Positions 8,102 to 39,907 of a DNA stretch of 42,538 nt are shown here, in pieces. Location of the stretch: positions 1 to 42,538 of the IMG/VR virus record IMGVR_UViG_3300027533_000048; one strand, 5' to 3'. Every line of letters starts with the position of its first letter. Positions within the stretch are counted from its first letter, which is position 1. The position numbers and the translations under genes were made by a program. The notes beneath the pieces were generated by a model. It was not told the DNA's origin, made no database searches, and saw nothing but the letters and a program-made list of their open reading frames with translations. This DNA comes from a virus. Taxonomy: Duplodnaviria > Caudoviricetes.

Positions 8102-9195
8102 TGGGCGGCAAATCAGCACCACAACCAACACCGGACTACGGCGCCGCTGCGAAAGAGCAGGGGCTCGCCAACGCCGCCACGTCCAAGGAAGATTGGATCA
8201 GGACACTCGGCACGCAGTCGGACCCGTACAAGACGACCTCGACCGTCGCGGACCCCAACTCCGCATCCGGCTACACGACCAAGACTACGTTCGATCCTGC
8301 GGACCAGGCGCGCCTCGACCAGCAGCGCAAGCTGATGTCACAGATGCTCGGCGTCGGGGACAGCACCGTGCAGCAGGTGCAGAACTCACTCGGCAAGGCA
8401 TTCGACACGTCGAGCCTGGACCCGCTCACGGGGCACGTTGACGCGGAGAAGATGGGCCGCGCCGGGATCAAGGGCGGCACCACGATGAACACCGACATCA
8501 ACCTGGAGGGTCTGCAGTCGCTCAACGACCCCACCGCGGTGCGCCAGAAGATGATGGACGAGTCCTACAAGAACTTCTCGTCGCGCTTCGATCCGGTGGC
8601 GGAGCGGCAGCAGGAGCAGATGCGCGCGCGCATCGCCAACATGGGCGGCGTCACCACGTCGGACGCTTCGCGGCAGCAGATGAGCGACTTGCTGCAGGGC
8701 CAGAACGACGCGCGCACGGCGGCGACGTTCGAGGCGCAGAAGGCCGGTCAGGATGCCGCCGCGCAGATCGAGGCGCAACAGCTCGCCAACCGCGGCCAGC
8801 AGTACGGCGAGCGCACCGGCGAGTTCGGTCTGGAGAACCAGGCGGTGATGGACGCGCTCGGCCAGCGCAACACGGCGGCGCAGCAGGACATCAACAACGC
8901 CTTCACCAACGCCAACCTCGGCAACGCCACACGCGCGCAGGGGCTCTCCGAGATGCAGCAGATTCGCCAGATGCCGATGAACGAACTGCTCGCGATGTTG
9001 AGCGGGACGCAGGTGCAGGGCGGCACCTTCGGTCAGCAGCAGGGCAGCAACACCACGGCGGCGCCGATCTTCGGTGCAGCACAGGCGACGGGCGCCGCGA
9101 ACCAGGCAGCGAACGCCACGGCAGCGTCGGAGCGCAACAGCATGATGAGCGCGCTCGGCAGCGTTGCGGGGATGGGCGCCACGGCGATGATCTGA
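8101..9195 (+). CDS. DNA ejection (pilot) protein, P22 gp7-like
   Basis: MGGKSAPQPTPDY start, Q/A-rich helical body, hydrophobic Gly-rich C-terminus. Confidence 0.7.
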   Translation: MGGKSAPQPTPDYGAAAKEQGLANAATSKEDWIRTLGTQSDPYKTTSTVADPNSASGYTTKTTFDPADQARLDQQRKLMSQMLGVGDSTVQQVQNSLGKAFDTSSLDPLTGHVDAEKMGRAGIKGGTTMNTDINLEGLQSLNDPTAVRQKMMDESYKNFSSRFDPVAERQQEQMRARIANMGGVTTSDASRQQMSDLLQGQNDARTAATFEAQKAGQDAAAQIEAQQLANRGQQYGERTGEFGLENQAVMDALGQRNTAAQQDINNAFTNANLGNATRAQGLSEMQQIRQMPMNELLAMLSGTQVQGGTFGQQQGSNTTAAPIFGAAQATGAANQAANATAASERNSMMSALGSVAGMGATAMI

Positions 9196-9926
9196 TGCTC
9201 AAAGACCACAAAATCGTCGCGCTCCACTTCAGCGGCGGCAAGGACTCCCTTGCCACGCTGTACCTCATGCGCCCGTGGTGGGAGCGCATCACGGTGCTGT
9301 GGTGCAACACCGGGGATGCGTTCCCCGAGACACGGCTGCAGATGGACGCGATCAAGCAGCTGGTGCCGCACTTCCAGGAAGTGGAGTCGGACCAGCCGCT
9401 GCAGATCGCGGAGAACGGCTACCCGTCCGACGCACTGAGCGCGTGGGACACGCCGTTCGGCGCGGCGATCTACGAGGGTCGCCCGCACAAGGCACAGGCG
9501 CCGCTCGGGTGCTGCCAGGCGAACATCTGGGCACCGATGGACCGTGCGACCCGGATGCTGGGCGCGACAATGGTGATTCGCGGGCAGCGCAACAGCGAGA
9601 GGCTCAAGTCTCCGATCCGCTCGGGGCACGTCGAGGACGGCATCGAGTACCTGTTCCCGCTGCAGGAGTGGACGGACGAGATGGTGAAGGGGTACTTGCG
9701 CGACAATGACGTGGCGTTGCCGCCGCACTACGTCTACAACAACACGTCGCTCGACTGCCAGCACTGTTCCGGCTACCTGTTCGACACCGTGGGCAAGTTC
9801 GACTACATGCGGAAGCATCACCCGACGCTGCACAGGAAGGTAGTGGAAATTGTGCGGATGAATCTGAACGCCGTGGTGTGGGAACTGCGTCACGCTCGCG
9901 CGATCATCGACGCGCACTCGGAGTAA
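9195..9926 (+). CDS. PAPS/APS reductase family (PP-loop) protein
   Basis: FSGGKDS PP-loop, TGDAFPET, CC, GQRNSE, PLQEWT and SLDCQHC motifs. Confidence 0.85.
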   Translation: MLKDHKIVALHFSGGKDSLATLYLMRPWWERITVLWCNTGDAFPETRLQMDAIKQLVPHFQEVESDQPLQIAENGYPSDALSAWDTPFGAAIYEGRPHKAQAPLGCCQANIWAPMDRATRMLGATMVIRGQRNSERLKSPIRSGHVEDGIEYLFPLQEWTDEMVKGYLRDNDVALPPHYVYNNTSLDCQHCSGYLFDTVGKFDYMRKHHPTLHRKVVEIVRMNLNAVVWELRHARAIIDAHSE

Positions 9927-17988: not shown

Positions 17989-18039
17989 CGCGCACCGCCC
18001 CGGACGCGCTCCCCGTTGATTTTATTGGGGATGTGCGTC

Positions 18040-18055
18040 CGGCACCCGAATTGCT
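18040..18055 (+). promoter_or_regulatory. sigma54 (RpoN) -24/-12 promoter
   Basis: cGGCAC-ccgaa-TTGCT with GG at 18041 and GC at 18053 (canonical spacing), ~30 nt before the ATG of the PEP-CTERM gene. Confidence 0.75.
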
Positions 18056-18087
18056 TATGCTCCGGTTCAATCACCGGAGGATCACCC

Positions 18088-18816
18088 ATGAAGAAACTAC
18101 TGTTCGGCATCGCAGCTCTGGCGATCGCGGCGCCCGCGTACGCCACGCTGCAGATCGCGGCCAATTTCGGCGGCGTGCTGTTCTTCTGCGCCGATCAGCA
18201 AGCCTGTGACACCAACCCGCTCGTCGGCCAACTCGGCATTACCAACCAGATCATCAACGGCGTCGAGATTCTGGGGTCGAGCCAGTTCGCCACCATCGGC
18301 GTGAACAACTTCCTCAACACGTCCTCGTTCCAGATCATCAACCACAACCTGTTCAACATCGGCTATGAAGTCGCCGTCGGGGGCACCGGATTTCTCGGGC
18401 CGGTCAGTTCCTATGCGGCATCGGGCAGCGGCACTTGGCAGAATGCCGCCGGGAGCGACATCGACCTGTCGTACTACGGTGACGCCGCCAACGGTCAGGG
18501 TGCCGATACGCCGAATGATCTGCCGGGGTTGCTGTTGGCCTCGTTCAGCGACGTTGCTGTCGGTCCTGCGGACGCATTCGCCTTCAACACCAGCGGCGCA
18601 TTCAACGCTCCCAACCCGTTCAGCATGAGCTTGGGTACTGATGGCACCCTCGCCGCATGGAACGGTCAGCAAGGGCAGGAAACCACGCTCGTAGGCCGCT
18701 CGCAGACGATCCTGACCACGCAACTGCTGGTCCCCGAACCCGGCACACTCGCGCTGCTCGGCCTCGGTCTGCTGGCAATCGGTTTCGCCCGCCGGGGTTC
18801 CCTCCGCCAGAGGTAA
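18088..18816 (+). CDS. PEP-CTERM sorting domain protein (exosortase substrate)
   Basis: GGAGG SD. Signal peptide MKKLLFGIAALAIAAPAYA; C-terminal VPEPGTLALLGLGLLAIGFARR (PEP + TM helix + Arg cluster). Confidence 0.93.
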   Translation: MKKLLFGIAALAIAAPAYATLQIAANFGGVLFFCADQQACDTNPLVGQLGITNQIINGVEILGSSQFATIGVNNFLNTSSFQIINHNLFNIGYEVAVGGTGFLGPVSSYAASGSGTWQNAAGSDIDLSYYGDAANGQGADTPNDLPGLLLASFSDVAVGPADAFAFNTSGAFNAPNPFSMSLGTDGTLAAWNGQQGQETTLVGRSQTILTTQLLVPEPGTLALLGLGLLAIGFARRGSLRQR

Positions 18817-18976: not shown

Positions 18977-20025
18977 GCTTTGCCTTTCATGCTCGGGTCA
19001 CAGTCGGGGAAGCGGCAATGCGCGGCGATGCAGGTGCCCGCATCGTCACTCCAGTTCGCGCAGCGCGTCGATGGCGGCGCGGACAAATTCTTCAGCTTGC
19101 GGAGCGCAGAGGGCGTTTCCCGCGGCGCGTAGAGCGCCCACTCTGCCGGGATACCCATAAGCCAGAGGGAAAAGTCCGGGTTTAGTTGGCCGCGCTTTTC
19201 CGTCCCGGCAGGGGAGCCAGACGGCGTCGGCCCAGAAACCGTTAGTAGCGCCATTTGGTCGAGATACAGGCCGATCCCGTCCATCTTGCTCGGCGGCATT
19301 GAGGAGCCGCCCTTGTAGTCCCGCGTTGCTGGTGTCGCCCACGATGCCAGCGAGCTCGCCATGCCCAACGTCATCCCGAATCCGTTGTTGCCGTGCCGCT
19401 CTTTGCACTCCTCCCGCCGCGCTTCCCATTTCGTGTCCGTGTCGTTCTGCGGTCCCGCGTTCGGCGTCGGCCACGGCGAGAGCATTGCCTCCTGCGATAT
19501 GCCCACCTCGCACAGGCGTCCCGTGTCCTTGTCGTAGGCCCGCTCCCCGCCACTCCAAGGCGTCCCGTCCTTGTTCACCAACCGGCCCAACGTGATGCCC
19601 GACTCCTGCGAGCTCGGACTGCGCCACCCAGTAGATTCGCTGCCGGATGTGCGGCGCCCCGTAGCCCGCAGCGCAGGTATCGACCGCCCCGACGGTGTAA
19701 TCCTCGCCTTCCAGGTCAGCGTAAACATGGTCGAGCCAAGCAAGTGCGTCCTTGCTTGCAACCTGCTCACCAAAGATAACGCCAGGGCGGCACTCGCGGA
19801 TGAGCTCGAACCATGCCGGCCAGAGATGCCGCTCGTCTGCGAGTCCTTTTCCTTTCCCGGCGCTGGAGAATGGCTGGCAAGGACATGATCCGGACCAAAC
19901 AGGTCGGGTGTCAGCCCACCCGGCGCTGCGGAGCGCGTGGCTCCAGATTCCAATACCGGCGAAGAAATGGCACTGGGTGAATCCGCGCAAGTCTGCGGGC
20001 CGGACATCGAGGATGCTTCGCTCAT
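18973..20025 (-). CDS. Alternative-frame beta polypeptide of the C5 DNA methyltransferase (TRD + motif IX-like)
   Basis: GGAG SD before ATG 20025. WRSP/WPTP/WATP repeats and GQLNPDFSLWLMGIPAEW; overlaps the alpha ORF almost entirely. Confidence 0.65.
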   Translation of the reverse strand: MSEASSMSGPQTCADSPSAISSPVLESGATRSAAPGGLTPDLFGPDHVLASHSPAPGKEKDSQTSGISGRHGSSSSASAALALSLVSRLQARTHLLGSTMFTLTWKARITPSGRSIPALRATGRRTSGSESTGWRSPSSQESGITLGRLVNKDGTPWSGGERAYDKDTGRLCEVGISQEAMLSPWPTPNAGPQNDTDTKWEARREECKERHGNNGFGMTLGMASSLASWATPATRDYKGGSSMPPSKMDGIGLYLDQMALLTVSGPTPSGSPAGTEKRGQLNPDFSLWLMGIPAEWALYAPRETPSALRKLKNLSAPPSTRCANWSDDAGTCIAAHCRFPDCDPSMKGKA

Positions 20026-20116
20026 CAACTTCTCCATCTGCAATCAGTCCTGCCTGGATTAAACGGCGCAGCCACTCCGCGGCCACCGGGTCATTCTCAT
20101 TGAAGTAAGCAGCCAT
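19046..20116 (-). CDS. C5 cytosine DNA methyltransferase (alpha polypeptide)
   Basis: Motif I FFAGIG, IV GSCPCQPFS, VI EQV, VIII HIRQRIY, X GNAL. Confidence 0.9.
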   Translation of the reverse strand: MAAYFNENDPVAAEWLRRLIQAGLIADGEVDERSILDVRPADLRGFTQCHFFAGIGIWSHALRSAGWADTRPVWSGSCPCQPFSSAGKGKGLADERHLWPAWFELIRECRPGVIFGEQVASKDALAWLDHVYADLEGEDYTVGAVDTCAAGYGAPHIRQRIYWVAQSELAGVGHHVGPVGEQGRDALEWRGAGLRQGHGTPVRGGHIAGGNALAVADAERGTAERHGHEMGSAAGGVQRAARQQRIRDDVGHGELAGIVGDTSNAGLQGRLLNAAEQDGRDRPVSRPNGATNGFWADAVWLPCRDGKARPTKPGLFPLAYGYPGRVGALRAAGNALCAPQAEEFVRAAIDALRELE

Positions 20117-24361: not shown

Positions 24362-25097
24362 ACGGCCCTCCGTTGCTCTTACGAAATGAACACCAACGGC
24401 AGTGGACGCCTGGGCTCGCAGGAAAAATGGTTTCACTCAGGAGGGGTTCAGCAAACTCGGCAAATTCTTGTTCAAGGGAAAGCTCCTGCGCTCGCGTGAA
24501 GCGCGTTAGGTCATCGGCCCGCTCGGGGTCATCGATGTAGTCGCAGCCAACGACGACGACATCGAGCGTAGGGTTCAGCTTCAGTGCGGCGAGCGCGTAC
24601 AGGCGCTTCTGCTTCTCATGCTCGGGGTACACCTTGCCGGTCTTGAACTCATGCACGCGCACCATGTCCTTCAGCACCAGCATCGCGTCCATCACGATCC
24701 GCACCCAGACATTCGCGCCGTACCACGGCACTTGCTCCCAGTTCTTGGTGAACGCGATCTGCTGCTCGGCAATGGCCCCGGCGCCGTGCAGATGTCCCAG
24801 GCGTTTCTTCCAGATGTCCTGGTGCGGGATGAGCGCGCCCTCGGGCCACTCCCCGGTGTTCACCAGGTGCGCCAACTCCCCGTGGATGCCCTTGCCGCGC
24901 TGGATTGCGGTGTTCTCGGGCTCGGGCAAGCGCTCGATCTTGGTGAAGCGGATCACCTGCGGACACTTGCGGTGCTGATTCACCACGCTGTAGCTCCACG
25001 CCTTGATGCGCGGGAACGTCGGCACGCTTATCTCGACGCTGGCCGGCACCACGGGCGCTGTGCTGTTGAACGGGTTGTAGCCTTCGATCATGGTCAT
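24348..25097 (-). CDS. PD-(D/E)XK Cas4/RecB-like exonuclease
   Basis: WSYS...CP, RGKGIH, EQQI, MDA...EFKTGK, Q..LYA and C-terminal CRWC...C. Confidence 0.85.
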   Translation of the reverse strand: MTMIEGYNPFNSTAPVVPASVEISVPTFPRIKAWSYSVVNQHRKCPQVIRFTKIERLPEPENTAIQRGKGIHGELAHLVNTGEWPEGALIPHQDIWKKRLGHLHGAGAIAEQQIAFTKNWEQVPWYGANVWVRIVMDAMLVLKDMVRVHEFKTGKVYPEHEKQKRLYALAALKLNPTLDVVVVGCDYIDDPERADDLTRFTRAQELSLEQEFAEFAEPLLSETIFPASPGVHCRWCSFRKSNGGPCAFG

Positions 25098-25765
25098 CTC
25101 GTCTGTTCGTTGATCTGCAACGGGGGCACCTTGCTCGCGGCAATGGCTGCGCTGGCGCAATGCACGACAGCGCCTAGCCCGTTCGGACGCCCGCAAACGC
25201 ACTTGGTTGGCGCATCGCACATGCCCACGATCCGCTCTAGCGCCCGCTCCAACTCCGCAACGCGGGCCTCGGCTGCTATGCCAGCATCGCGGAATCGCTC
25301 CATGTTCGCTGTGGCTGCGGCCAGCATGTCTGCCTGCGATTGCAGCGCTGCGGCGGCTTGCGTAACCAATGTATGGGCACTGCGCGAGTGCATAACATGA
25401 TTCCGGTCATCGCTGTAAACGTGATCCGGCAGCAGGTCGAGGTAGTAAGCAATCCGCTGCAATCCCGCAATCAGCGCCGCAACGTATGGCACTGGCGCTG
25501 AGTTCGGCACGGCAACTTGATGCTGCGCCCACTCTGGATCGCAGACGGGGCATCCGGTGTCGTCGCAACGGGCACACTTCGGCTCGTCTGCTGGCACTGG
25601 CAGCGAAGCGCGACCGGCGGCGAATGCGCCCGCAATAGCTTGCATTAGCGCAACCATCGTCCAGCCCGGAAGCGGCCCAGCGTTAATGCTGCGCCATGCT
25701 GCCCGCGCCCTTTCCTCTAGCTGCTCGTCAGTCAGCGCCGCAACGTCAGGCTTGCACTGTGTCAC
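25094..25765 (-). CDS. Hypothetical protein with CxxC pairs
   Basis: CARCDDTGCPVC motif and coiled coil; overlaps both neighbours. Confidence 0.6.
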   Translation of the reverse strand: MTQCKPDVAALTDEQLEERARAAWRSINAGPLPGWTMVALMQAIAGAFAAGRASLPVPADEPKCARCDDTGCPVCDPEWAQHQVAVPNSAPVPYVAALIAGLQRIAYYLDLLPDHVYSDDRNHVMHSRSAHTLVTQAAAALQSQADMLAAATANMERFRDAGIAAEARVAELERALERIVGMCDAPTKCVCGRPNGLGAVVHCASAAIAASKVPPLQINEQTR

Positions 25766-28121
25766 AGTTCATCTCCTTCAATTCGCCCCACGATGGACCC
25801 ACCTCGACATCGACCAGGATCGGCACCACCAGCGGCATCGCCTTGATCATGCACGCGCGCAACATCTGCGCGTAGTACAGCGCATGCTCGCGCGGGACGC
25901 TGACATTGATCTCGTCGTACACCTGCGAGATGAACGTGCTGCCCCCGCCGGCCTCGCAGTAGTCCACGATCGCTTGCTTGGTCATGTCCGCAGCACCACC
26001 CTGGATCAGCTTGTTGGGCATCTTGTACTCGAAATTCCGCAGCCGGCCCTTCACCGTCACCGGCTCTTCCATCTGCAGGATGCGCCCGCCCAGCGACGTG
26101 ACACTCTTGCTGCCGGTGGACTTGATCTTGATCCGCTGGATCAGATTGGCGAGCCCCGGCAGTGCCGCGAAATAGGCACTCTTCACCTCCTCGGCTTCCG
26201 CATCGCTGATGCCCATCATGCGCGCGAGCTTCGGAATCCCGGCCCCGTAGATGCTGGCGAACGCGACATTCTTCACATGCTTGCGCGGGAACTTCTTGCC
26301 GACGTTGCGCGCAATCAGATCCTGCGCGAACGTGTGCAGATCCAGTGCCGGGTTGCGCTGGTACGCGCGCTGCATCTGGTCGCCTTCGTAGTGGGCCGTG
26401 ATCCGCAGTTCCTGCTGATTGTAGTCAGCGCTGACCCAGACATGACCCTCCTCGGGCAGCAACGCGCAGCGCAGGTTCGGCAGCGGCGGCAGACTGAACG
26501 GCGGCGGGAGATCATTCGGGTTGGGTACGTTGGCGAGGTTCGGGTCCGCCGACGCGATGCGCCCAGTGCGGGTGCCGTACTTGTCCTGTCCGCGCACCTG
26601 GTGCCAGTTGGTGTGCAGCCGGCCGTCCGCCGCAGAGAGCTCGAGCCACGGCAGCACGAACGTCCGCAGCATGGTCGCCGCTGCACCCCGGTAGGCGAGC
26701 TGCGCGACCAGCGTCTTGTCGACACAGCAACGCTCCAGCGCGCCCTTGGACATGCTGCGCGTCTTGGGGGCCTCAGTGGCGTCCTCGCCGTTCCCGAACG
26801 GGTTGACCGCCTCGGGCGGCGGCGGGGCCAGGCCGGCGACACAGGGGAACGGCACGCCGTCGGGAGTCTCCCAGTGGCTGACCAGACCCTCGCGCTCCAG
26901 CGCGTTCGCCAGATCCTCGGAACTGTCCAGGTTGAGGCTCATGTCGTTCAAGCCCGCGCGGATCATCTCGTCGCACTTCCGCAGCCCCAGTTCCAGCTGC
27001 GACAACCACTCGACCAGCAACCCACGGTCGACGCGAATCCCGCGCCGCTCGGCATCGGTCAGGTACGGCAGCAGCCGCTTCTCGCGCGCGTACGACGGAC
27101 CCTGCTGCGCCATGATGTGGCGATAGAAGCGCACGAACAGCGACCAGGTGCGTGTGGTGTCGCCAATCGCGTAGGGCGCGACCAACTCCACCGGGGCTAG
27201 CGAAATGTGGGCACCGAAATTCTTCTTTGTGGCACCGGGCACGTTGGCGAGAATCCAATCGCGCACGGCGTCCTGTTCCTCGGGCAGCACGCCCAGGAAG
27301 CGCTGCGCCAGTGGCTTGAGCGAGAATGAGTCCGCATTGGGCGCGAACAGGTAGGCGAGCAGCAGGGTGTCTTCCCAGCGCTTCGGGAACGGCAGTTTGA
27401 GCCACTTCCACGCCACCTCCATGTCGAACTTCGCATTGTGGAAGATCACGGTGCTTTCGTACGCCCGGCGCACCGCCCGGGTGGCTTCCTCGATCGTGCA
27501 GTTGTTGCCCGACGGGTGCCCCCACGCGAGGTACTCGCTGACGCCGTGCGGCCAGCGGATCGCGACACCGACGGGCTCGGGCGGATACTGGTGCGGGCGC
27601 GGGCCGATTGCCTTCGTTTCAAAGTCCACGACGGCATAGGTTTCGTCACTCACGGGTTTCCCTATCAATTTTGCGGGCGGCATATCCTCGGGCAGCATCT
27701 GAAATGCCCACAGTCCGCCCTTTGTAAAGCCGACGTGCGTGAAACCTGCACGCCGGTAGCATCGCCCTGGGTCGCGCTTTGGTCGCGTTTTCCCAGCGTC
27801 CACGAACGTAATCATTCCCAACGGCGGTACATCCGGCCAAATCCCCCGCGTTATGGCAATCGCCTCGCGTATCAAATCCGACGACAGGCCCGCACCCTCG
27901 TTGCGAAACAGGCTGTTCACCCACGCCCCGCCCCACGCATGTTTTACATACTGCGCGTAAGGCCACGACGTGATCCACAGTGCATTCCCACAGTCGGACA
28001 GCAGAACGACGCACCGACCTGGCGGCACGAACTGCGGCGACCCGATCTTCTGCCGGTTGTAATGCCGATCGGCAAGCGGTAGCGCCGCCTTGTCCGCACG
28101 ATGCGATAACTGCCACGGCAT
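25746..28121 (-). CDS. polA: Family A DNA polymerase (3'-5' exo + pol) with in-frame N-terminal Mom/GNAT-like domain; polymerase core from GTG 27653
   Basis: ExoI DFET, ExoII HNAKFD, ExoIII YAIGD; TGRIAS..PNL.N, motif A DYNQQELR, motif B KNVAFASIYG, motif C VYDE. Confidence 0.92.
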   Translation of the reverse strand: MPWQLSHRADKAALPLADRHYNRQKIGSPQFVPPGRCVVLLSDCGNALWITSWPYAQYVKHAWGGAWVNSLFRNEGAGLSSDLIREAIAITRGIWPDVPPLGMITFVDAGKTRPKRDPGRCYRRAGFTHVGFTKGGLWAFQMLPEDMPPAKLIGKPVSDETYAVVDFETKAIGPRPHQYPPEPVGVAIRWPHGVSEYLAWGHPSGNNCTIEEATRAVRRAYESTVIFHNAKFDMEVAWKWLKLPFPKRWEDTLLLAYLFAPNADSFSLKPLAQRFLGVLPEEQDAVRDWILANVPGATKKNFGAHISLAPVELVAPYAIGDTTRTWSLFVRFYRHIMAQQGPSYAREKRLLPYLTDAERRGIRVDRGLLVEWLSQLELGLRKCDEMIRAGLNDMSLNLDSSEDLANALEREGLVSHWETPDGVPFPCVAGLAPPPPEAVNPFGNGEDATEAPKTRSMSKGALERCCVDKTLVAQLAYRGAAATMLRTFVLPWLELSAADGRLHTNWHQVRGQDKYGTRTGRIASADPNLANVPNPNDLPPPFSLPPLPNLRCALLPEEGHVWVSADYNQQELRITAHYEGDQMQRAYQRNPALDLHTFAQDLIARNVGKKFPRKHVKNVAFASIYGAGIPKLARMMGISDAEAEEVKSAYFAALPGLANLIQRIKIKSTGSKSVTSLGGRILQMEEPVTVKGRLRNFEYKMPNKLIQGGAADMTKQAIVDYCEAGGGSTFISQVYDEINVSVPREHALYYAQMLRACMIKAMPLVVPILVDVEVGPSWGELKEMNCDTVQA

Positions 28122-28200
28122 ATATCCTCGTCTAGATTAAGGGCCGCTCCCCGCAATGACGGCGCAACGCCGCAAGGAGGGAGCGGGTACTGCTCGAAAC

Positions 28201-28620
28201 TTACGCCGGCGGCGCGCCGAACGGGGAGTTGCCAGGCGCCAGCGACGGGTGCGGCGGCGGGGCCAGCGGCTCGGGCGGTGCCGGTTGTTGCGTGAACGTC
28301 GGCATGACGCCCGGTACGGGGGTTTGACCGACGCCCTCGGTTTCCGGCTTCGGAATCGCCGGGCCAGGCGTCGGCGCGGCCTTCGGTTGCTGCGGCTTGC
28401 TGTAGCGTGCCGCTGCGGCCCGTTTTGCGGCCTCAGAGCGCTTCGCGGCGCCGCCCAGGTCATCGATGCCCAGCATGATGCGATCGGCCGCCATGATGGC
28501 GAACTTGGTCTTGTCGCGCACCGACAGTCCGGTGAGCGTGGACGCGACCTCGGTCATCGCGGAGAACACCACGTCATCGATGTCCATGCGGCTTGCTGCG
28601 ATTACGGTATCTTCTGCCAT
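28201..28620 (-). CDS. Hypothetical protein with Pro-rich C-terminal tail
   Basis: AGAGG SD; helical N-terminus and disordered tail. Confidence 0.65.
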   Translation of the reverse strand: MAEDTVIAASRMDIDDVVFSAMTEVASTLTGLSVRDKTKFAIMAADRIMLGIDDLGGAAKRSEAAKRAAAARYSKPQQPKAAPTPGPAIPKPETEGVGQTPVPGVMPTFTQQPAPPEPLAPPPHPSLAPGNSPFGAPPA

Positions 28621-28648
28621 TTCTGAATTCCTCTATTGTGGGATTACG

Positions 28649-29458
28649 TTAGAACGTCGCCGCGCCGGCCGGGGCCGGTGGGTGGAACGTGGCGGTTGCT
28701 TCCTCGACCGGGCGCACCGGGTACGGCACCAGCATCTCGGCCTCATCGATTGCGTTGCGGACGCTGATCGACTCCAGCACGCCCCGGTCAGTGATGTCCG
28801 ATACATACGAGAACACGAACTTGTGCTGCGCCTTTACGTCGGGCACCAGCTTCATTTTCGTGATCACCGTCAGCGGACTGCGATGCACCTTGGCGAGCTC
28901 GCCAACGTACTGCTGCCATTCCTTGACCGAATAGACGGCCAGACGGATGAATCCGGCCGGCGCTTTCAGTGTCGCCTCGCCACTGGTCAGCACGCCCGCA
29001 GGGATCACCGACAGTCGCCGCATGTTGCGGCACGCCTTGCCCTTCTTGGTGCCCGTTGTCGCCGTGCCGAACTTCGACCACGGGCACATGTCGCACGATG
29101 CCGCTTGCTTAACTGGCGAGTTTTCGTGCGGGACCATGATCGGGATCGGCCGCTCGGGCGTGCCCTTGCCCAGGGCATAGCAATCCGGCGTTTCGATCTT
29201 GTCCGCGTCATAGGGGCGCGGATAGTAGCTGTTGTCGAACACGTTCGCCGTGATACAGACTTCCATCTCGTTGTTGTTGAGTGGAATCTTGTTGAACGTC
29301 AGAACGCCGGCCCTGGTGCCGAAGAATTGCCCAGGCGCCCGCGCAGCTTCGACGGTCACCTTGGTAATCGCGAGCAGATTCTTTTCCCAATCCGGCATCG
29401 TGCTGGGATCCGACACTGCGCCGCCATTGGCGGGAACTACGAGGTCTTTCTTTGCCAT
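28649..29458 (-). CDS. Putative ssDNA-binding/annealing protein (Zn-binding)
   Basis: ATG 29458. PDCY, CDMCPWSKFG...GKACRNMRRL; C-terminal Phe tail; lies upstream of the polymerase. Confidence 0.6.
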   Translation of the reverse strand: MAKKDLVVPANGGAVSDPSTMPDWEKNLLAITKVTVEAARAPGQFFGTRAGVLTFNKIPLNNNEMEVCITANVFDNSYYPRPYDADKIETPDCYALGKGTPERPIPIMVPHENSPVKQAASCDMCPWSKFGTATTGTKKGKACRNMRRLSVIPAGVLTSGEATLKAPAGFIRLAVYSVKEWQQYVGELAKVHRSPLTVITKMKLVPDVKAQHKFVFSYVSDITDRGVLESISVRNAIDEAEMLVPYPVRPVEEATATFHPPAPAGAATF

Positions 29459-29460
29459 GA

Positions 29461-29925
29461 TTAAGTAGTCTCCTGTTGTGCAGCAAGTTGGGCACTCGTC
29501 AGCGGTGCCACGATGAACGCTCGCAGCAAGCCGGCGGAACTGCCCCCATTCTTTGCAACTATCGCCGCGGCATCTGCGTCGGCATCCTGCTCGAGCCGGC
29601 GCGCTAGTTGTGTCGCTTGCCAGGCCAGATTGCGTACCGCGACCATGCGTGCGAGCTTGTGGCGTGACCACTGCTCGTTTAGTAGCGTGATCGCATCTTT
29701 CAGCGCCGCGGCGCCGTGCGCCTCGTCGGGCACCTCCGCAACCCACAGTTCGCTGGGCACGCTGTTGGGATCGATGCCCAGATACCAGAGCGCTTTCTCG
29801 TAGTGGATCTTGGATGTCGGATGCGTGAGCAAAAAGTCCGCCAGTTGCATCATCTCCGTTTGTCGCACATTGCCGACAGCGGCATCCGCAACCGCGAGCC
29901 CGAGCTGCAAATTTTTTAGTTTCAT
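29461..29925 (-). CDS. Hypothetical protein
   Basis: ATG 29925 overlaps the upstream stop (ATGA). Confidence 0.6.
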   Translation of the reverse strand: MKLKNLQLGLAVADAAVGNVRQTEMMQLADFLLTHPTSKIHYEKALWYLGIDPNSVPSELWVAEVPDEAHGAAALKDAITLLNEQWSRHKLARMVAVRNLAWQATQLARRLEQDADADAAAIVAKNGGSSAGLLRAFIVAPLTSAQLAAQQETT

Positions 29926-30326
29926 CCGCCCACCGTAAGCTTGAGTGTCGGCAGCACCACCCGCTTCACGCCGGGGGGCAACGCGTTGTTGGAGTCGCGA
30001 TCGGCCACTGCTTTTTGTCCGACGCGTTTGTAGAGCAGATCGAATTCGCCGGTGCGTTGCACATGCGCGTAGAACGGCGTCCAATCCTCGACGTTGTAAA
30101 CCACCTTGTCGACAATGTCCGCGCTGCCCAGCGTCGACTTCACGCCGCGCATGTTGTGCGTGAGCAGCAACGCTTCGAGCGCGTTTGTTGCTTCCTTGAG
30201 CGCGTCCTCGTCGCGCTTCAGTGCCTCGGCGCTGTGCTTTGCCGTTGCCTGGGCGAACAGGGCGCGATTGAGCGCGGCCGTTATTTCAAATTGGCCGGCG
30301 ACTGCGGATGGTTCATTCATTGCCAT
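29922..30326 (-). CDS. Conserved phage replication-module protein
   Basis: AGGAG SD. Coiled coil, then VEDWTPFY...FDLLYKRV...LPPGV. Confidence 0.7.
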   Translation of the reverse strand: MAMNEPSAVAGQFEITAALNRALFAQATAKHSAEALKRDEDALKEATNALEALLLTHNMRGVKSTLGSADIVDKVVYNVEDWTPFYAHVQRTGEFDLLYKRVGQKAVADRDSNNALPPGVKRVVLPTLKLTVGG

Positions 30327-32264: not shown

Positions 32265-32969
32265 TTAGCTGCCTTTCCTGGTGTGGTGAAACTTGATAAC
32301 CGCCGCTTGGGCTTTCTTGGCTTGCGTGCCATGCGCGGGAAACCCGATGATCGGCCGGGCGCTGGTCGCGCCCCGCTGGCACATTTGGCACGACAGACAG
32401 GTGACATCGTCACGGATAGTCGCCGGACATATGACCACAGCCCGCCCCGCAGGCGTCACCGTATTGGTGACCTGGTCAATCGGCACGACAACCGCGACGG
32501 GCGCGATATTCAGATCAGCTAGCTGATCGGCATGCGCCAGGTTATTGGCGGACAGGTTGATGGTAAAGCCTGCCTTGTTGGCCGCGGCGACAGCGGCGCG
32601 ATTTGCCTGGGATGTCATGGGCTTGTGCGTGTAGGTAAAGCCACGGCGTCCGGTGTTAGCCTTGACCAATTGCGCGAGCTGCGCGGCATCGATTGCATCG
32701 CCTGCGCCAGGCAGATCGCCTGCCTGATTGTGCCGCCACAGCGTGCCGACCGGAAACTTGGCAATGGACGCGCACAGTGTCGCGAGATCCGTGCCACGCG
32801 AACCGTCGGACACTTTGAGCCAATGCAGTTTCAAGGGGCCGCTGTCGGCATAACAGCCGTTATTGATAAACGCGCACGACGGCGGACAGGTGGATGCTGC
32901 CGATGTGGTGACCGGAATTGGCCCCGTCTTGGCGTTGCTAGACTTAGGCGTCAAATGGTAATTGGTCAT
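32265..32969 (-). CDS. Cys-rich gp88/DUF7227-like protein (possible Fe-S, radical-SAM-related)
   Basis: SNAKTG, TCPPSC...GCYA, RHNQAGD, FTYTH, CPA...TCLSCQMC and GFPAHG motifs. Confidence 0.65.
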   Translation of the reverse strand: MTNYHLTPKSSNAKTGPIPVTTSAASTCPPSCAFINNGCYADSGPLKLHWLKVSDGSRGTDLATLCASIAKFPVGTLWRHNQAGDLPGAGDAIDAAQLAQLVKANTGRRGFTYTHKPMTSQANRAAVAAANKAGFTINLSANNLAHADQLADLNIAPVAVVVPIDQVTNTVTPAGRAVVICPATIRDDVTCLSCQMCQRGATSARPIIGFPAHGTQAKKAQAAVIKFHHTRKGS

Positions 32970-36491: not shown

Positions 36492-39248
36492 ATGACCGTC
36501 GAGTCCGATCCGTCTGCCGGCGCCAACCCCGCCAACAAGGAAGCCGCCAACACCATGAGCGACTTCGGGCCGGTGGGCACGCCGCAAGCGCTGGCCGCGT
36601 ACTGGAAAGAGGAGATCAAGGCCTCGAACAAGGACCCGCTGCGCGCCAAGTGGCAGGAGCGTGCGGCGCGCATCGTGAAGCGCTACCGTGACGACCGGGG
36701 GAACGATGGAGGCATTGCCGACCACCAGAAACGCTACAACATCTTTTGGTCTAACGTACAGACCATCATGCCCGCGATGTATGGAAAACGTCCGGAACCC
36801 TGTGTCGTACGCCGCTATCTCGATCCGGACAGCGTTGCGCGTGTCGCCGCGATCATTCTGGAAAGAACATTGTGTTTTCAGATGGACTCGCAGACCCGTT
36901 TCTATGATGCGATGCGCTCAGCCCTTCAAGATCGTCTTGTTCCCGGAATTGGGACCGTTTGGGTTCGGTATCAGGAGGGACAGAAAAGCCCGACCAACAC
37001 AGTGACCAACGACTATTACGCCAAGCTCACCGGCGAGATGGCGGAGGTCGATTACGTCTATTGGGAAGATTTCGGCTTCGTAGCGGCGCGCACCTGGGAG
37101 GAGGTGCCCGCGGTGTGGCGCATCGTCCACATGAACCGCGAGCAGCTGGTGAAGCGCTTTGGCGAGAAGATCGGCGGCGAGTGCCCGCTCGATCACATCC
37201 CGGCGCGCCACCGCAGCCCGGCCGGCGGGTCCACCAGCGAGACTGACGAGCCGAAAACGGCGGTGTTCAAGCAAGCCGAGATCTACGAGATCTGGGACAA
37301 GCGCACCAGCAAGGTCATTTGGCTCAATATGGGCATGAACGTCCCGCTCGACGTGAAAAAAGACCCGGTGCGCTTCCCCGGATTCTTCCCGTGCCCGAAA
37401 CCGCTGTTCGCCACCAACACCACGGGGAATTTGATCCCGATCCCCGATTTTGCACTCTACCAGGACCAGGCCAACGAGCTCGACAACATCACCCAGCGTC
37501 TGAACCTGCTCACCAAGGCGCTGAAGGTGGTCGGCGTCTACGATCAGGGTCAGTCGGGCGTGCAGCGCATGCTCACCGAGGGTGTCGACAACCAGTTGAT
37601 CCCGGTGGACACCTGGGGGGCGTTCGCGGAGAAGGGCGGGTTGAAGGGCGTGGTCGACTTCATGCCGATCGACCAGATCATCGTGGTGGTGGAGAAGCTG
37701 TACGAGATTCGCGCCAAGCTGATCGAGGACATCTACCAGATCACCGGCATCAGCGACATCGTGCGCGGGGCGAGCAACCCGTCCGAAACGGCGACAGCGC
37801 AGAAGATCAAGGCGCAGTTCGCGTCGGTGCGGCTGGATGACATGAAGTCGCAGATGGGCCAGTTCGTCACCGACACGCTGCGCCTCATGGGCTGGATCAT
37901 CACCGAATTCTTCCCCGAGGACGTGATCATCGCGCAGAGCGCGATCATGCAGTCGCCCGACGGGCAGGAAGCGATCAAGGAAGCACAAGCCGCAATGGCG
38001 CCGCCGCCCGCTCCGCCAGGCCCGCCCGGCGCGGCCCCCTCGCCGCCCGGTCCTCCGCCTGGCCCCGGTGCGGGGGCGCCACCGATGGGCATGAGCGGCC
38101 CGCCGCCGGGACCGCCCGCGGTGCCGGGACTGCCGCCGGGGATGCCGGGCGTGCAGATGGGCGCGCAGAGCATGCCGCCGCCGAACGGCATGCAGATGGG
38201 CGGGATGCCGGGCATGAACGGCGCCGCTCCGCCCCCGCCCGGTGGGATGCCGCCGGGAGCGCTCGGGCCTTACGGTCCGTTGCCGATGGGGCCGGCGCCC
38301 GCACCCACCGCGGTGGGGATCGTGAAGCAGGCGATCGACATGCTGAAAAAGGGCAAGGATGTCGACTTCCGCATCGAGATCATCGCGGAGTCGATGATCG
38401 CCAACGACTACAGCGCGGAGCGCGAGGAGCGCACGGCGTTCATCACGTCGACATCGACGTTCATGCAGAACGCGCTGCCGCTGCTCAAAGCCAACCCCGA
38501 GTTGGCGCCGCTGGTGCAATCGCTGATGATGTTCGGCGTGCGCTCGTTCAAAGCCGGGCGCGATCTGGAGGGTGTGATCGAATCATCGCTGACCAAGTTC
38601 GCCAGCAAGCCAGCGCCGCCCCCGCCGCCCGACCCGAAGGTGGAAGCCATCAAGGCGCAGGGCATGGCGGACCAGGCCAAGCACCAGCAGGAGATGCAAG
38701 CCGCGCAAGCCGCAGGTGCCGCCGCGCAGCAGAAGCATCAGCAGGAGATGCAAGCCTCGCAACAGGCGCTCATGCTCTCCAAGCAGGAGGGCGATCAGAA
38801 GTTGCAGTTCGCGGCGCAGAAGCACGCCGAGGAGATGGAAGCGTTCCGCAAGAAAACACAGGCCGAGGTCGAAGCCATCCTCATCATGGCGAACGTGAAG
38901 GCGGGAGTGGCGCGCGATGCGGCAGCAGCGAAGGCGGAAGGTGAAGCGCAGTTGCAGGAGGTCGCTGTCCAGGGCCGCGCCGCAGACATGGCGCAGGATT
39001 TGGCCCAAGGGGAGGAGAAACATGGACAGGAAATGCAGCACGGCGCGGAAGGGCACGCACTAGACCTGGCGGCGAAGGAAGCCGGTGCGGAGCAGGGTCT
39101 AGTACAGGGCGAGCAGCAGCACGAACAGGGTTTGGAGCAGGGCGCAGAGCAGCACGAAGCGAACCTCGGGCAACAGGAGGAAGCGGCGGAGCAGACGCTG
39201 GAGCAGCAAGAGAAAGCCGCGAAGGCGAAGCTGAAGTCGGCGGAATGA
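36492..39248 (+). CDS. Portal protein with Pro-rich insertion and long Q/E-rich tail
   Basis: Follows terL. YNIFWSNVQT, IYEIWDK, FFPCPKPL and ITGISDIVRG...ETATAQ are P22-like portal motifs. Confidence 0.88.
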   Translation: MTVESDPSAGANPANKEAANTMSDFGPVGTPQALAAYWKEEIKASNKDPLRAKWQERAARIVKRYRDDRGNDGGIADHQKRYNIFWSNVQTIMPAMYGKRPEPCVVRRYLDPDSVARVAAIILERTLCFQMDSQTRFYDAMRSALQDRLVPGIGTVWVRYQEGQKSPTNTVTNDYYAKLTGEMAEVDYVYWEDFGFVAARTWEEVPAVWRIVHMNREQLVKRFGEKIGGECPLDHIPARHRSPAGGSTSETDEPKTAVFKQAEIYEIWDKRTSKVIWLNMGMNVPLDVKKDPVRFPGFFPCPKPLFATNTTGNLIPIPDFALYQDQANELDNITQRLNLLTKALKVVGVYDQGQSGVQRMLTEGVDNQLIPVDTWGAFAEKGGLKGVVDFMPIDQIIVVVEKLYEIRAKLIEDIYQITGISDIVRGASNPSETATAQKIKAQFASVRLDDMKSQMGQFVTDTLRLMGWIITEFFPEDVIIAQSAIMQSPDGQEAIKEAQAAMAPPPAPPGPPGAAPSPPGPPPGPGAGAPPMGMSGPPPGPPAVPGLPPGMPGVQMGAQSMPPPNGMQMGGMPGMNGAAPPPPGGMPPGALGPYGPLPMGPAPAPTAVGIVKQAIDMLKKGKDVDFRIEIIAESMIANDYSAEREERTAFITSTSTFMQNALPLLKANPELAPLVQSLMMFGVRSFKAGRDLEGVIESSLTKFASKPAPPPPPDPKVEAIKAQGMADQAKHQQEMQAAQAAGAAAQQKHQQEMQASQQALMLSKQEGDQKLQFAAQKHAEEMEAFRKKTQAEVEAILIMANVKAGVARDAAAAKAEGEAQLQEVAVQGRAADMAQDLAQGEEKHGQEMQHGAEGHALDLAAKEAGAEQGLVQGEQQHEQGLEQGAEQHEANLGQQEEAAEQTLEQQEKAAKAKLKSAE

Positions 39249-39907
39249 GATTTTACGCTGACGATGTGAAGGTGGGCGACATCACGATGGCGCTGCGCGA
39301 TGCGGGTGTGTCGATACTTCAGACGCATCTGCTGGCGCCGACGGAGCGCGAACACGTCGCGGCGCTGCTGCACTTCTTCGAGCCGGTCGAGAATAGCCTG
39401 ATCCTCGATCTCGGCGCGGGGACCGGCGCGGTGGCGGACATGATGCAGGACGCGCGTGGCGATCTGCAGTTCATCCTGCTCAATCAGTCGCAGTCGCAGC
39501 TCGACCTCGCGCGGACGATACATCGCAAGATTCATGGCGACTTCCAGAACATCCCATCGCTACCGGTGCAACCCAACGCGGTGATGATGACCTACGCGCT
39601 CGGTCACGGGGATTTGCGGCGCACGCTGTCGGAGGTGGCGCGGGTGCTGCCGCGCGGCGGGCTGTTCTTCCTCTACGATCTCACCGCGCGGAACCACGCA
39701 CTGGCGCTGCAGACCGAACTTGAGTACAGCGCGTACCCGGCGCGGCGCATCATACGCCTCGCGGACGAGTACGGGATGGGTCTGTCGCGGGCGCAAGCGC
39801 CGGATGACCTGTTCTCGGATCACATGCTGAAACTGATGTCGCAGGAGCAGTACGACGAGATATTCGACGGCGTGGTGCCGATGCTGTTCCGCTTCGTGAA
39901 GCTATGA
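39245..39907 (+). CDS. Class I SAM-dependent methyltransferase
   Basis: ILDLGAGTG motif I, HGDF, EVARVLPRGG. ATGA overlap with the portal stop. Confidence 0.85.
   Translation: MRFYADDVKVGDITMALRDAGVSILQTHLLAPTEREHVAALLHFFEPVENSLILDLGAGTGAVADMMQDARGDLQFILLNQSQSQLDLARTIHRKIHGDFQNIPSLPVQPNAVMMTYALGHGDLRRTLSEVARVLPRGGLFFLYDLTARNHALALQTELEYSAYPARRIIRLADEYGMGLSRAQAPDDLFSDHMLKLMSQEQYDEIFDGVVPMLFRFVKL

Follow-up and report, generated by a model that had tools for sequence, protein, structure and literature searches.

A predicted Mom-like GNAT domain read in frame into a phage family A DNA polymerase, probably through recent insertion

When a phage reads a small Mom-like domain straight into its DNA polymerase, does it encode an enzyme that modifies bases while copying them, or does it carry an insertion that it has tolerated? 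The question is raised by the virus record IMGVR_UViG_3300027533_000048, analyzed here over its whole 42,538 bases (the window; completeness rating 100%), where one open frame on the minus strand (25746..28121) joins a 156-residue domain of the family phrog_24928 (27654..28121) to a family A DNA polymerase (PolA) core of 635 residues (25746..27653). An initial annotation of the sequence had proposed that this polymerase modifies bases during DNA synthesis. We favor, at a probability of roughly 0.57, a recent and tolerated in-frame insertion of a small mobile gene before the polymerase gene, with both a 791-residue fusion and a 635-residue polymerase being made; the join is probably a recent accident and not an evolved copy-and-modify machine.

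Translation from 28121 to 25746 is stop-free over 791 residues, with the motifs ADRHY, FRNE, TFVD and GRCY at residues 17-21, 72-75, 105-108 and 119-122 and the first exonuclease (ExoI) motif, DFET, beginning at residue 166; both the 156 uninterrupted codons ahead of that motif and the motifs themselves had been described in the initial annotation. At the junction (27662..27672, minus strand), a run of four A residues (27672-27669) is followed by tandem TGA-TAG stops in the +1 frame (27667-27662), and the same annotation had cautioned that a single-base error here could create the fusion. Four of 22 listed sequencing runs, from four studies, were compared across the junction (many of the other 18 have small shares). 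In each of the four, one contig bridges the run with at least 33 bases on either side, with no other letters and no gaps (X1, 26500-28154; X2, 27603-27753; X3, 27467-27705; X4, 27636-27786). Three sources, JGI/IMG, Logan and ENA, list an identical 791-residue protein, and a second assembly, P0122, encodes a protein of the same length with one residue changed. That two separate genes were merged by a sequencing or assembly error might be suspected, as the off-frame stops adjoin a homopolymer and the contigs other than X1, which may be the window's own source, are short (151-239 bases) and shallow (depth 2-5); given the agreement of all four runs and these further records, this explanation was rejected and its probability is close to nil. 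Homopolymer phase variation was likewise rejected, the run being only 4 bases long and invariant in the four runs. The 791-codon frame is real, the join is present in phage DNA, and the fused allele recurs across four studies from 2017 to 2020.

Two start signals and two intact domains lie within this single frame. A Shine-Dalgarno (SD)-like GAGG (28126..28129, minus strand) precedes the ATG at 28121, and the polymerase retains its ancestral ribosome-binding site and start in an internal initiation region (27651..27663, minus strand) made up of AGGG (27663-27660), 6 nucleotides and a GTG at 27653. Each SD forms a duplex of −5.9 kcal/mol, computed against a generic anti-SD motif. The internal region is unstructured, with 195 of 200 shuffles folding equally well, and no promoter or terminator was called in window positions 25000-30000. 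The N terminus of a related polymerase, P0141, consists of the same 13 residues as the product of the internal GTG, and a degenerate pattern of the initiation region matched only one of 285 loci, L082, at its polymerase start. The internal start that had been proposed is supported by these relatives, and the GTG, AGGG, A run and off-frame stops all lie where they had been placed.

These same signals could also serve separate products, the domain being released at 158 residues by a −1 ribosomal shift at A-AAA, or by linker cleavage, and the polymerase arising from its own GTG. A-AAA with a GAGG 13 nucleotides upstream, as found here, is a layout of bacterial −1 frameshift sites, and the −1 frame would add a 10-residue tail, bringing the domain closer to the usual family length, before a stop that overlaps the polymerase start. 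However, no 3′ stimulatory structure was found at the junction and this GAGG codes for ordinary family residues, and we regard such a separation as quite improbable.

The history of the join was read from related polymerases. The core (PF00476, E 1.5e-52; PF01612, E 2e-6; phrog_17; alignment with 21 relatives) keeps its 3′-5′ exonuclease and polymerase motifs intact. Its 119 nearest relatives, up to 74% identical, are 514-675 residues long with at most 24 residues ahead of the first ExoI aspartate, and none of the 119 carries the Mom-like domain. The phrog_24928 family was also absent from 160 polymerase loci, many of which end early upstream, and from 50 whole records (those given for 80 viral loci), including all 17 near-complete ones. 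In L082, whose polymerase is 63% identical, the site is empty: the upstream gene ends as it does here, the same hairpin follows, and the polymerase start comes directly after. The corresponding 139-residue gene and intergenic hairpin of the window lie at 28201..28620 and 28144..28186 on the minus strand; the hairpin marks the left side of the insertion, has no T-tail and was not called a terminator. Other small genes occupy the same spot in four further loci (L161, L083, L084 and L090), and the region ahead of the polymerase is an insertion spot. The fusion is confined to the window's lineage. The G+C content of third codon positions (GC3) is 0.69 for the domain and 0.865 for the polymerase (Fisher p 1e-6), which confirms the AT-richer codons noted earlier and fits a newcomer; the HNH and C5-methylase genes of the window are equally low (0.63 and 0.62). 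Together, the empty site, the low GC3 and the unfused relatives support the recent acquisition that the initial annotation had suggested.

Its further suggestion, that a one-base insertion in the A run had created the fusion, is doubtful. Ending at the +1-frame stops would place the end of the domain 3 residues past the conserved Pro148, a tail seen in 3 of 117 relatives (median, 15); on the other side, a tandem +1-frame stop near the junction is uncommon by chance, occurring in 1.9% of shuffles and nowhere in the 768 further stretches of 24 bases that the frame offers. Stop loss by truncation on insertion fits equally well.

The inserted domain belongs to a large family. Its match to PHROG 24928 (E 4e-50) places it with proteins of Micromonospora phage pMLP1, Salinibacter M8CR30-2 and Paenibacillus phage Lily; unlike the window's copy, members of this family are normally encoded by a separate gene of about 160 residues. 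At least 7,977 relatives were found (7,977 of 8,000 candidates of 85-273 residues), small and stand-alone, with a best identity of 83%, and an index-free search gave 1,060 clusters at 50% identity, the longest protein among the 150 listed having 627 residues. Stand-alone matches in 6 phage records are 42-71% identical to the domain, which nests inside the stand-alone relatives in a quick, weakly supported tree; of the strongly conserved positions, just 1 sets it apart from them. The conserved residues are H20, Y21, R73, S81, D108 and Y122, of which H20, Y21 and S81 are kept in 96-97% of the family and D108 in 85%, with Y or F at position 122. Pfam and NCBIfam scans matched no family to the domain, and its alignment found no sequence match among solved structures at E up to 10. 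A GNAT fold is predicted by an AlphaFold2 model (118 rows; pLDDT [predicted local distance difference test] 86), and the listed rows of both structure searches, Foldseek against PDB and VIA-align, are GNAT-fold proteins, with a best Foldseek E of 6e-3. Modeling the domain and the polymerase core as a complex scored 0.00 and was uninformative.

The resemblance to Mom of phage Mu is partial. Like Mom (PF25680; structure 8bv8), the domain has a predicted GNAT fold and is encoded in a phage amid DNA-modification genes. In PMC13219725 and PMC7261163, Mom residues H58/Y59, S124, D149 and Y159 are placed in the active site; a weak profile alignment (E 0.077) pairs the last three with S81, D108 and Y122 of the domain, and H20-Y21 resembles H58-Y59, matched by motif only. 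In the same weak alignment, the essential Mom residues R111 and R151 stand opposite G65 and P114 and are not clearly matched, with conserved R73, K111, R113 and K115 nearby. Mom differs further in its length of 241 residues versus 156, and in being a late, stand-alone dimer that acts on finished double-stranded DNA, whereas the domain is joined to a polymerase. None of 118 family members matched PF25680 at E up to 1; Mu Mom itself scores E 2.4e-75, and the Mom relatives fetched are 85-100% identical, too alike for a deeper profile. Because several Mom active-site residues appear to be kept but the essential helix-turn-helix (HTH)-like insert of Mom and the PF25680 match are missing, the phrog_24928 domain is best described as Mom-like and outside the Mom family. 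The "Mom/GNAT-like" label of the initial annotation accordingly stands for the predicted fold and the motifs and falls for family membership.

Genomic company points to DNA modification. Among 180 candidates of 435-1,385 residues, the domain was present in 14: the window cluster, 6 methyltransferase fusions (3 C5, 2 N6/N4 and 1 D12) and 7 others (1 SNF2, 1 PD-(D/E)XK, 1 DUF3631, 2 without a family, 1 partial match and 1 other PolA), so that methyltransferase fusions account for 6 of the 13 long proteins besides the window's. The immediate neighbors of stand-alone genes (133, from 152 picked minus duplicates) included 15 DNA methyltransferases and 2 PolA genes, the latter a pair 72% identical. 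Methyltransferases lay on 18/128 flanks within 1 kb, 7/117 at 1-2 kb and 2/312 at 2-5 kb, compared to 2/129 beside related polymerases; 11 and 7 duplicate loci were removed for these flank counts, and the queries were drawn from these neighbors, with self-hits excluded. Out of sample, in 64 prokaryote-genome loci unused in query picking (duplicates kept in), methyltransferases were found on 12/113 flanks versus 6/271 (p 9e-4). PolA was not enriched near the family, at 3/261 flanks within 1 kb versus 4/660 further off (p 0.41), and a PolA match was present in 6 of 49 carrier records (4 of 21 near-complete; 50 of 80 records given, one excluded), which is an undercount, as the PolA of L042 was missed. 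Overall, the phrog_24928 family associates with DNA methyltransferases rather than polymerases. Because it adjoins and fuses to these enzymes, we infer a DNA-modifying role for the family, and the domain is likely, by analogy, a DNA-base acyltransferase of the Mom type. The methyltransferases involved are of the C5, N6/N4, D12, Dam and MT-A70 classes (L001-L080, L287-L350). In a further locus (L345:4001-5150), the frame continues for 249 residues into an apparent adenine methyltransferase, as seen by motif.

Several observations weigh against the favored reading as a whole. In Foldseek searches against PDB and viral models, a check suggested at the outset, nothing was returned at E 0.001, and a phage Mom ranked 14th (E 0.13, TMq 0.56). 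The Mu Mom crystal structure (VIA-align Z 10.3, root-mean-square deviation 2.9, 130 aligned) ties with generic acetyltransferases (Z 10.7-10.1), the top Z of 10.7 belonging to AAC(6′)-Ib and glyphosate acetyltransferase. When its profile was compared with that of Mu Mom, the result fell short of significance, at E 0.077 and a probability of 0.7%. The HTH-like insert (about residues 175-209), whose deletion abolishes Mom activity according to PMC13219725, is absent, its place holding 10-11 residues in 90 of 104 rows and 21 at the longest. Because the Mom fold match is a tie, the profile match is not significant and this insert is missing, the case for DNA as the substrate rests mainly on gene context, and methyltransferases and the Mom-like gene may share accessory regions without a common pathway. 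The samples compared are near-clonal at the junction and so give no date for the join. Finally, two kinds of PolA association elsewhere, an internal in-frame insert that is harder to gain by accident (P0133) and a Mom-like gene directly behind PolA in two related phages (L042 and L049), sit uneasily with an accident.

The domain could instead be a GNAT that does not act on DNA at all and has a host protein, a tRNA or a small molecule as its substrate, in which case the fusion would be accidental and irrelevant to DNA chemistry. Its fold is matched best by acetyltransferases for aminoglycosides, glyphosate and spermidine, PF25680 is not matched, and R111, R151 and the HTH insert of Mom have no clear counterpart; PMC13219725 also warns that fold does not reveal a GNAT's substrate. 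Nevertheless, methyltransferase adjacency and fusion recur in two collections, the Mom-like positions hold HY, S, D and Y, and in the Atlas comparison, where viral clusters that are unnamed or GNAT-named came first (0.98), the nearest named cluster was Mom (0.88, 42% of members), a lead only. We consider a non-DNA substrate unlikely.

The PolA associations bear instead on whether the coupling was selected, with the polymerase supplying access to DNA and the domain acylating the new strand as it exits. A search for other Mom-like/PolA unions, as had been advised, yielded both kinds. In P0133, an 823-residue protein on one 43-kb Logan contig, residues 383-544 form the domain, which separates thumb from palm and leaves the polymerase motifs intact; it is a single sequence, and its single-sequence fold has a pLDDT of 36. 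Because the two polymerases share 25% identity and the P0133 domain is placed far away, on a long branch, in the quick and weakly supported tree, the P0133 insertion counts as independent of the window fusion. It offers the strongest indication that a PolA tether can at least be tolerated, and keeps selected tethering in play as an outside chance. Scans of viral contigs, in which near-identical records may be skipped, found none for P0133, for the window's polymerase core (single query) or for the junction 20-mer. In L042 (3091-6246) and L049 (3040-6261), PolA overlaps the start of the Mom-like gene, and a second GNAT (PF13302) follows.

Also in favor of selected coupling are an intact domain present here only as a fusion, the same allele in four studies, further fusion partners that act on DNA (SNF2, PD-(D/E)XK and HNH) and the precedent of polymerases fused to uracil-DNA glycosylase (UDG). 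Against it stand the unfused state of all 119 related polymerases, the lack of PolA enrichment near the family and the few carrier records with a PolA match, undercounted as these are, as well as the untouched ancestral internal start. In addition, two papers describe Mu Mom as modifying preformed double-stranded DNA, with Gly-tRNA, in lysates and in vitro (PMC13219725), and as expressed after phage replication (PMC7261163); replication is unnecessary for it, contrary to the premise that Mom activity is tied to replicating DNA. Because Mom acts on preformed DNA and is expressed after replication, replication coupling cannot be borrowed from it as a premise. The proposal of a polymerase that modifies bases during synthesis finds no conservation behind it, and we hold a selected fusion to be improbable. 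The same holds for a broader version, in which a minimal Mom-like family lacking the DNA-binding insert would reach DNA through methyltransferases and polymerases on which it docks or to which it is fused, PolA marking DNA while copying it and having been joined twice independently, N-terminally in the window and at the base of the thumb in P0133.

In the preferred reading, recent tolerated insertion, a small and mobile gene of phages, its product predicted to adopt a GNAT fold, would have inserted ahead of the polymerase gene and lost its own stop, so as to read into the polymerase in frame. The upstream start would give the 791-residue fusion and the retained internal GTG the ordinary 635-residue polymerase, both starts presumably being used. 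The domain may acylate or aminoacylate a base in DNA, at adenine N6 if it resembles Mom in this, and such a mark could block host restriction. Lacking its own stop, the domain would act tethered to the polymerase, near new DNA, while the family is normally untethered; the join would be tolerated and not selected.

Comparable architectures are known. UDG-PolA proteins of N4-like, SPO1, SP-15 and YerA41 phages likewise place a base-handling domain N-terminal to a family A polymerase (PMC10201439 and PMC13697223); unlike the window's join, which occurs in one lineage, keeps the internal start and brings a transferase fold, these fusions are kept across whole clades, occupy a fixed structural place and remove uracil. 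The fusion partners of PolA named in the available text of PMC10201439 are 5′-3′ exonuclease, helicase, primase and UDG, with no GNAT, Mom or acetyltransferase among them. Jumbo-phage fusions of Mom with restriction endonuclease-fold nucleases (PMC7824862) also join a Mom-type GNAT to a DNA-acting enzyme, but the partner here is PolA, and the common partner of phrog_24928 is a DNA methyltransferase. The literature covered, which leaves out most subscription papers, showed no phage polymerase fused to Mom or to a GNAT and no link between Mom modification and replication. A Mom-like GNAT with PolA is apparently an undescribed architecture, in one lineage, drawn from a large uncharacterized family.

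The phage is a tailed one: its terminase, portal and major head genes lie on the plus strand, and its replication block lies on the minus strand (polymerase, PD-(D/E)XK exonuclease, HNH, endonuclease, helicase, primase-helicase and C5 methyltransferase). The phage-collection polymerases closest to the window's are 34-37% identical; identity of the core as DpoZ (NF038380) was rejected at 163 bits against a curated cutoff of 500 bits. DNA near-identical to the window is present in groundwater and sediment metagenomes, and in run X4 a second strain, with a polymerase about 96% identical, was seen at window 26504-26759, no listed piece of it extending to the junction. The C5 DNA methyltransferase (19046..20116, minus strand; PF00145, E 4e-14; phrog_363) is this genome's other DNA-modifying candidate; it follows the primase here, lies directly behind the polymerase in L082 (5897-7228), and resembles, by eye, the methyltransferase part of a Mom-like-domain fusion, P0125. 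A PAPS (phosphoadenosine phosphosulfate)-reductase-domain gene (9195-9926) and a class I methyltransferase (39245-39907), both on the plus strand amid virion genes, one behind a structural gene and the other behind the portal, are possible virion or tRNA/DNA decoration enzymes. The product of a gene at 18016-18816 (plus strand) starts much like a signal peptide and carries at its C terminus the PEP-CTERM sorting motif (PF07589, E 1e-6), which usually tags host surface proteins, and a DUF7227 gene (PF23872, E 4e-92) lies at 32265-32969 (minus strand) amid early small genes.

A neutral, accidental join would be a minor case of accessory-gene insertion. With an active domain, the locus would offer a single-chain test of whether hypermodification benefits from a tie to the replication fork, with built-in controls for the tethering question in the free polymerase from the internal start and in the relatives that stand alone by the thousand. 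The family may matter more than the fusion, as a set of thousands of small, methyltransferase-linked, Mom-like GNATs without the insert that Mom needs, which could mean a new base modification and new anti-restriction chemistry.

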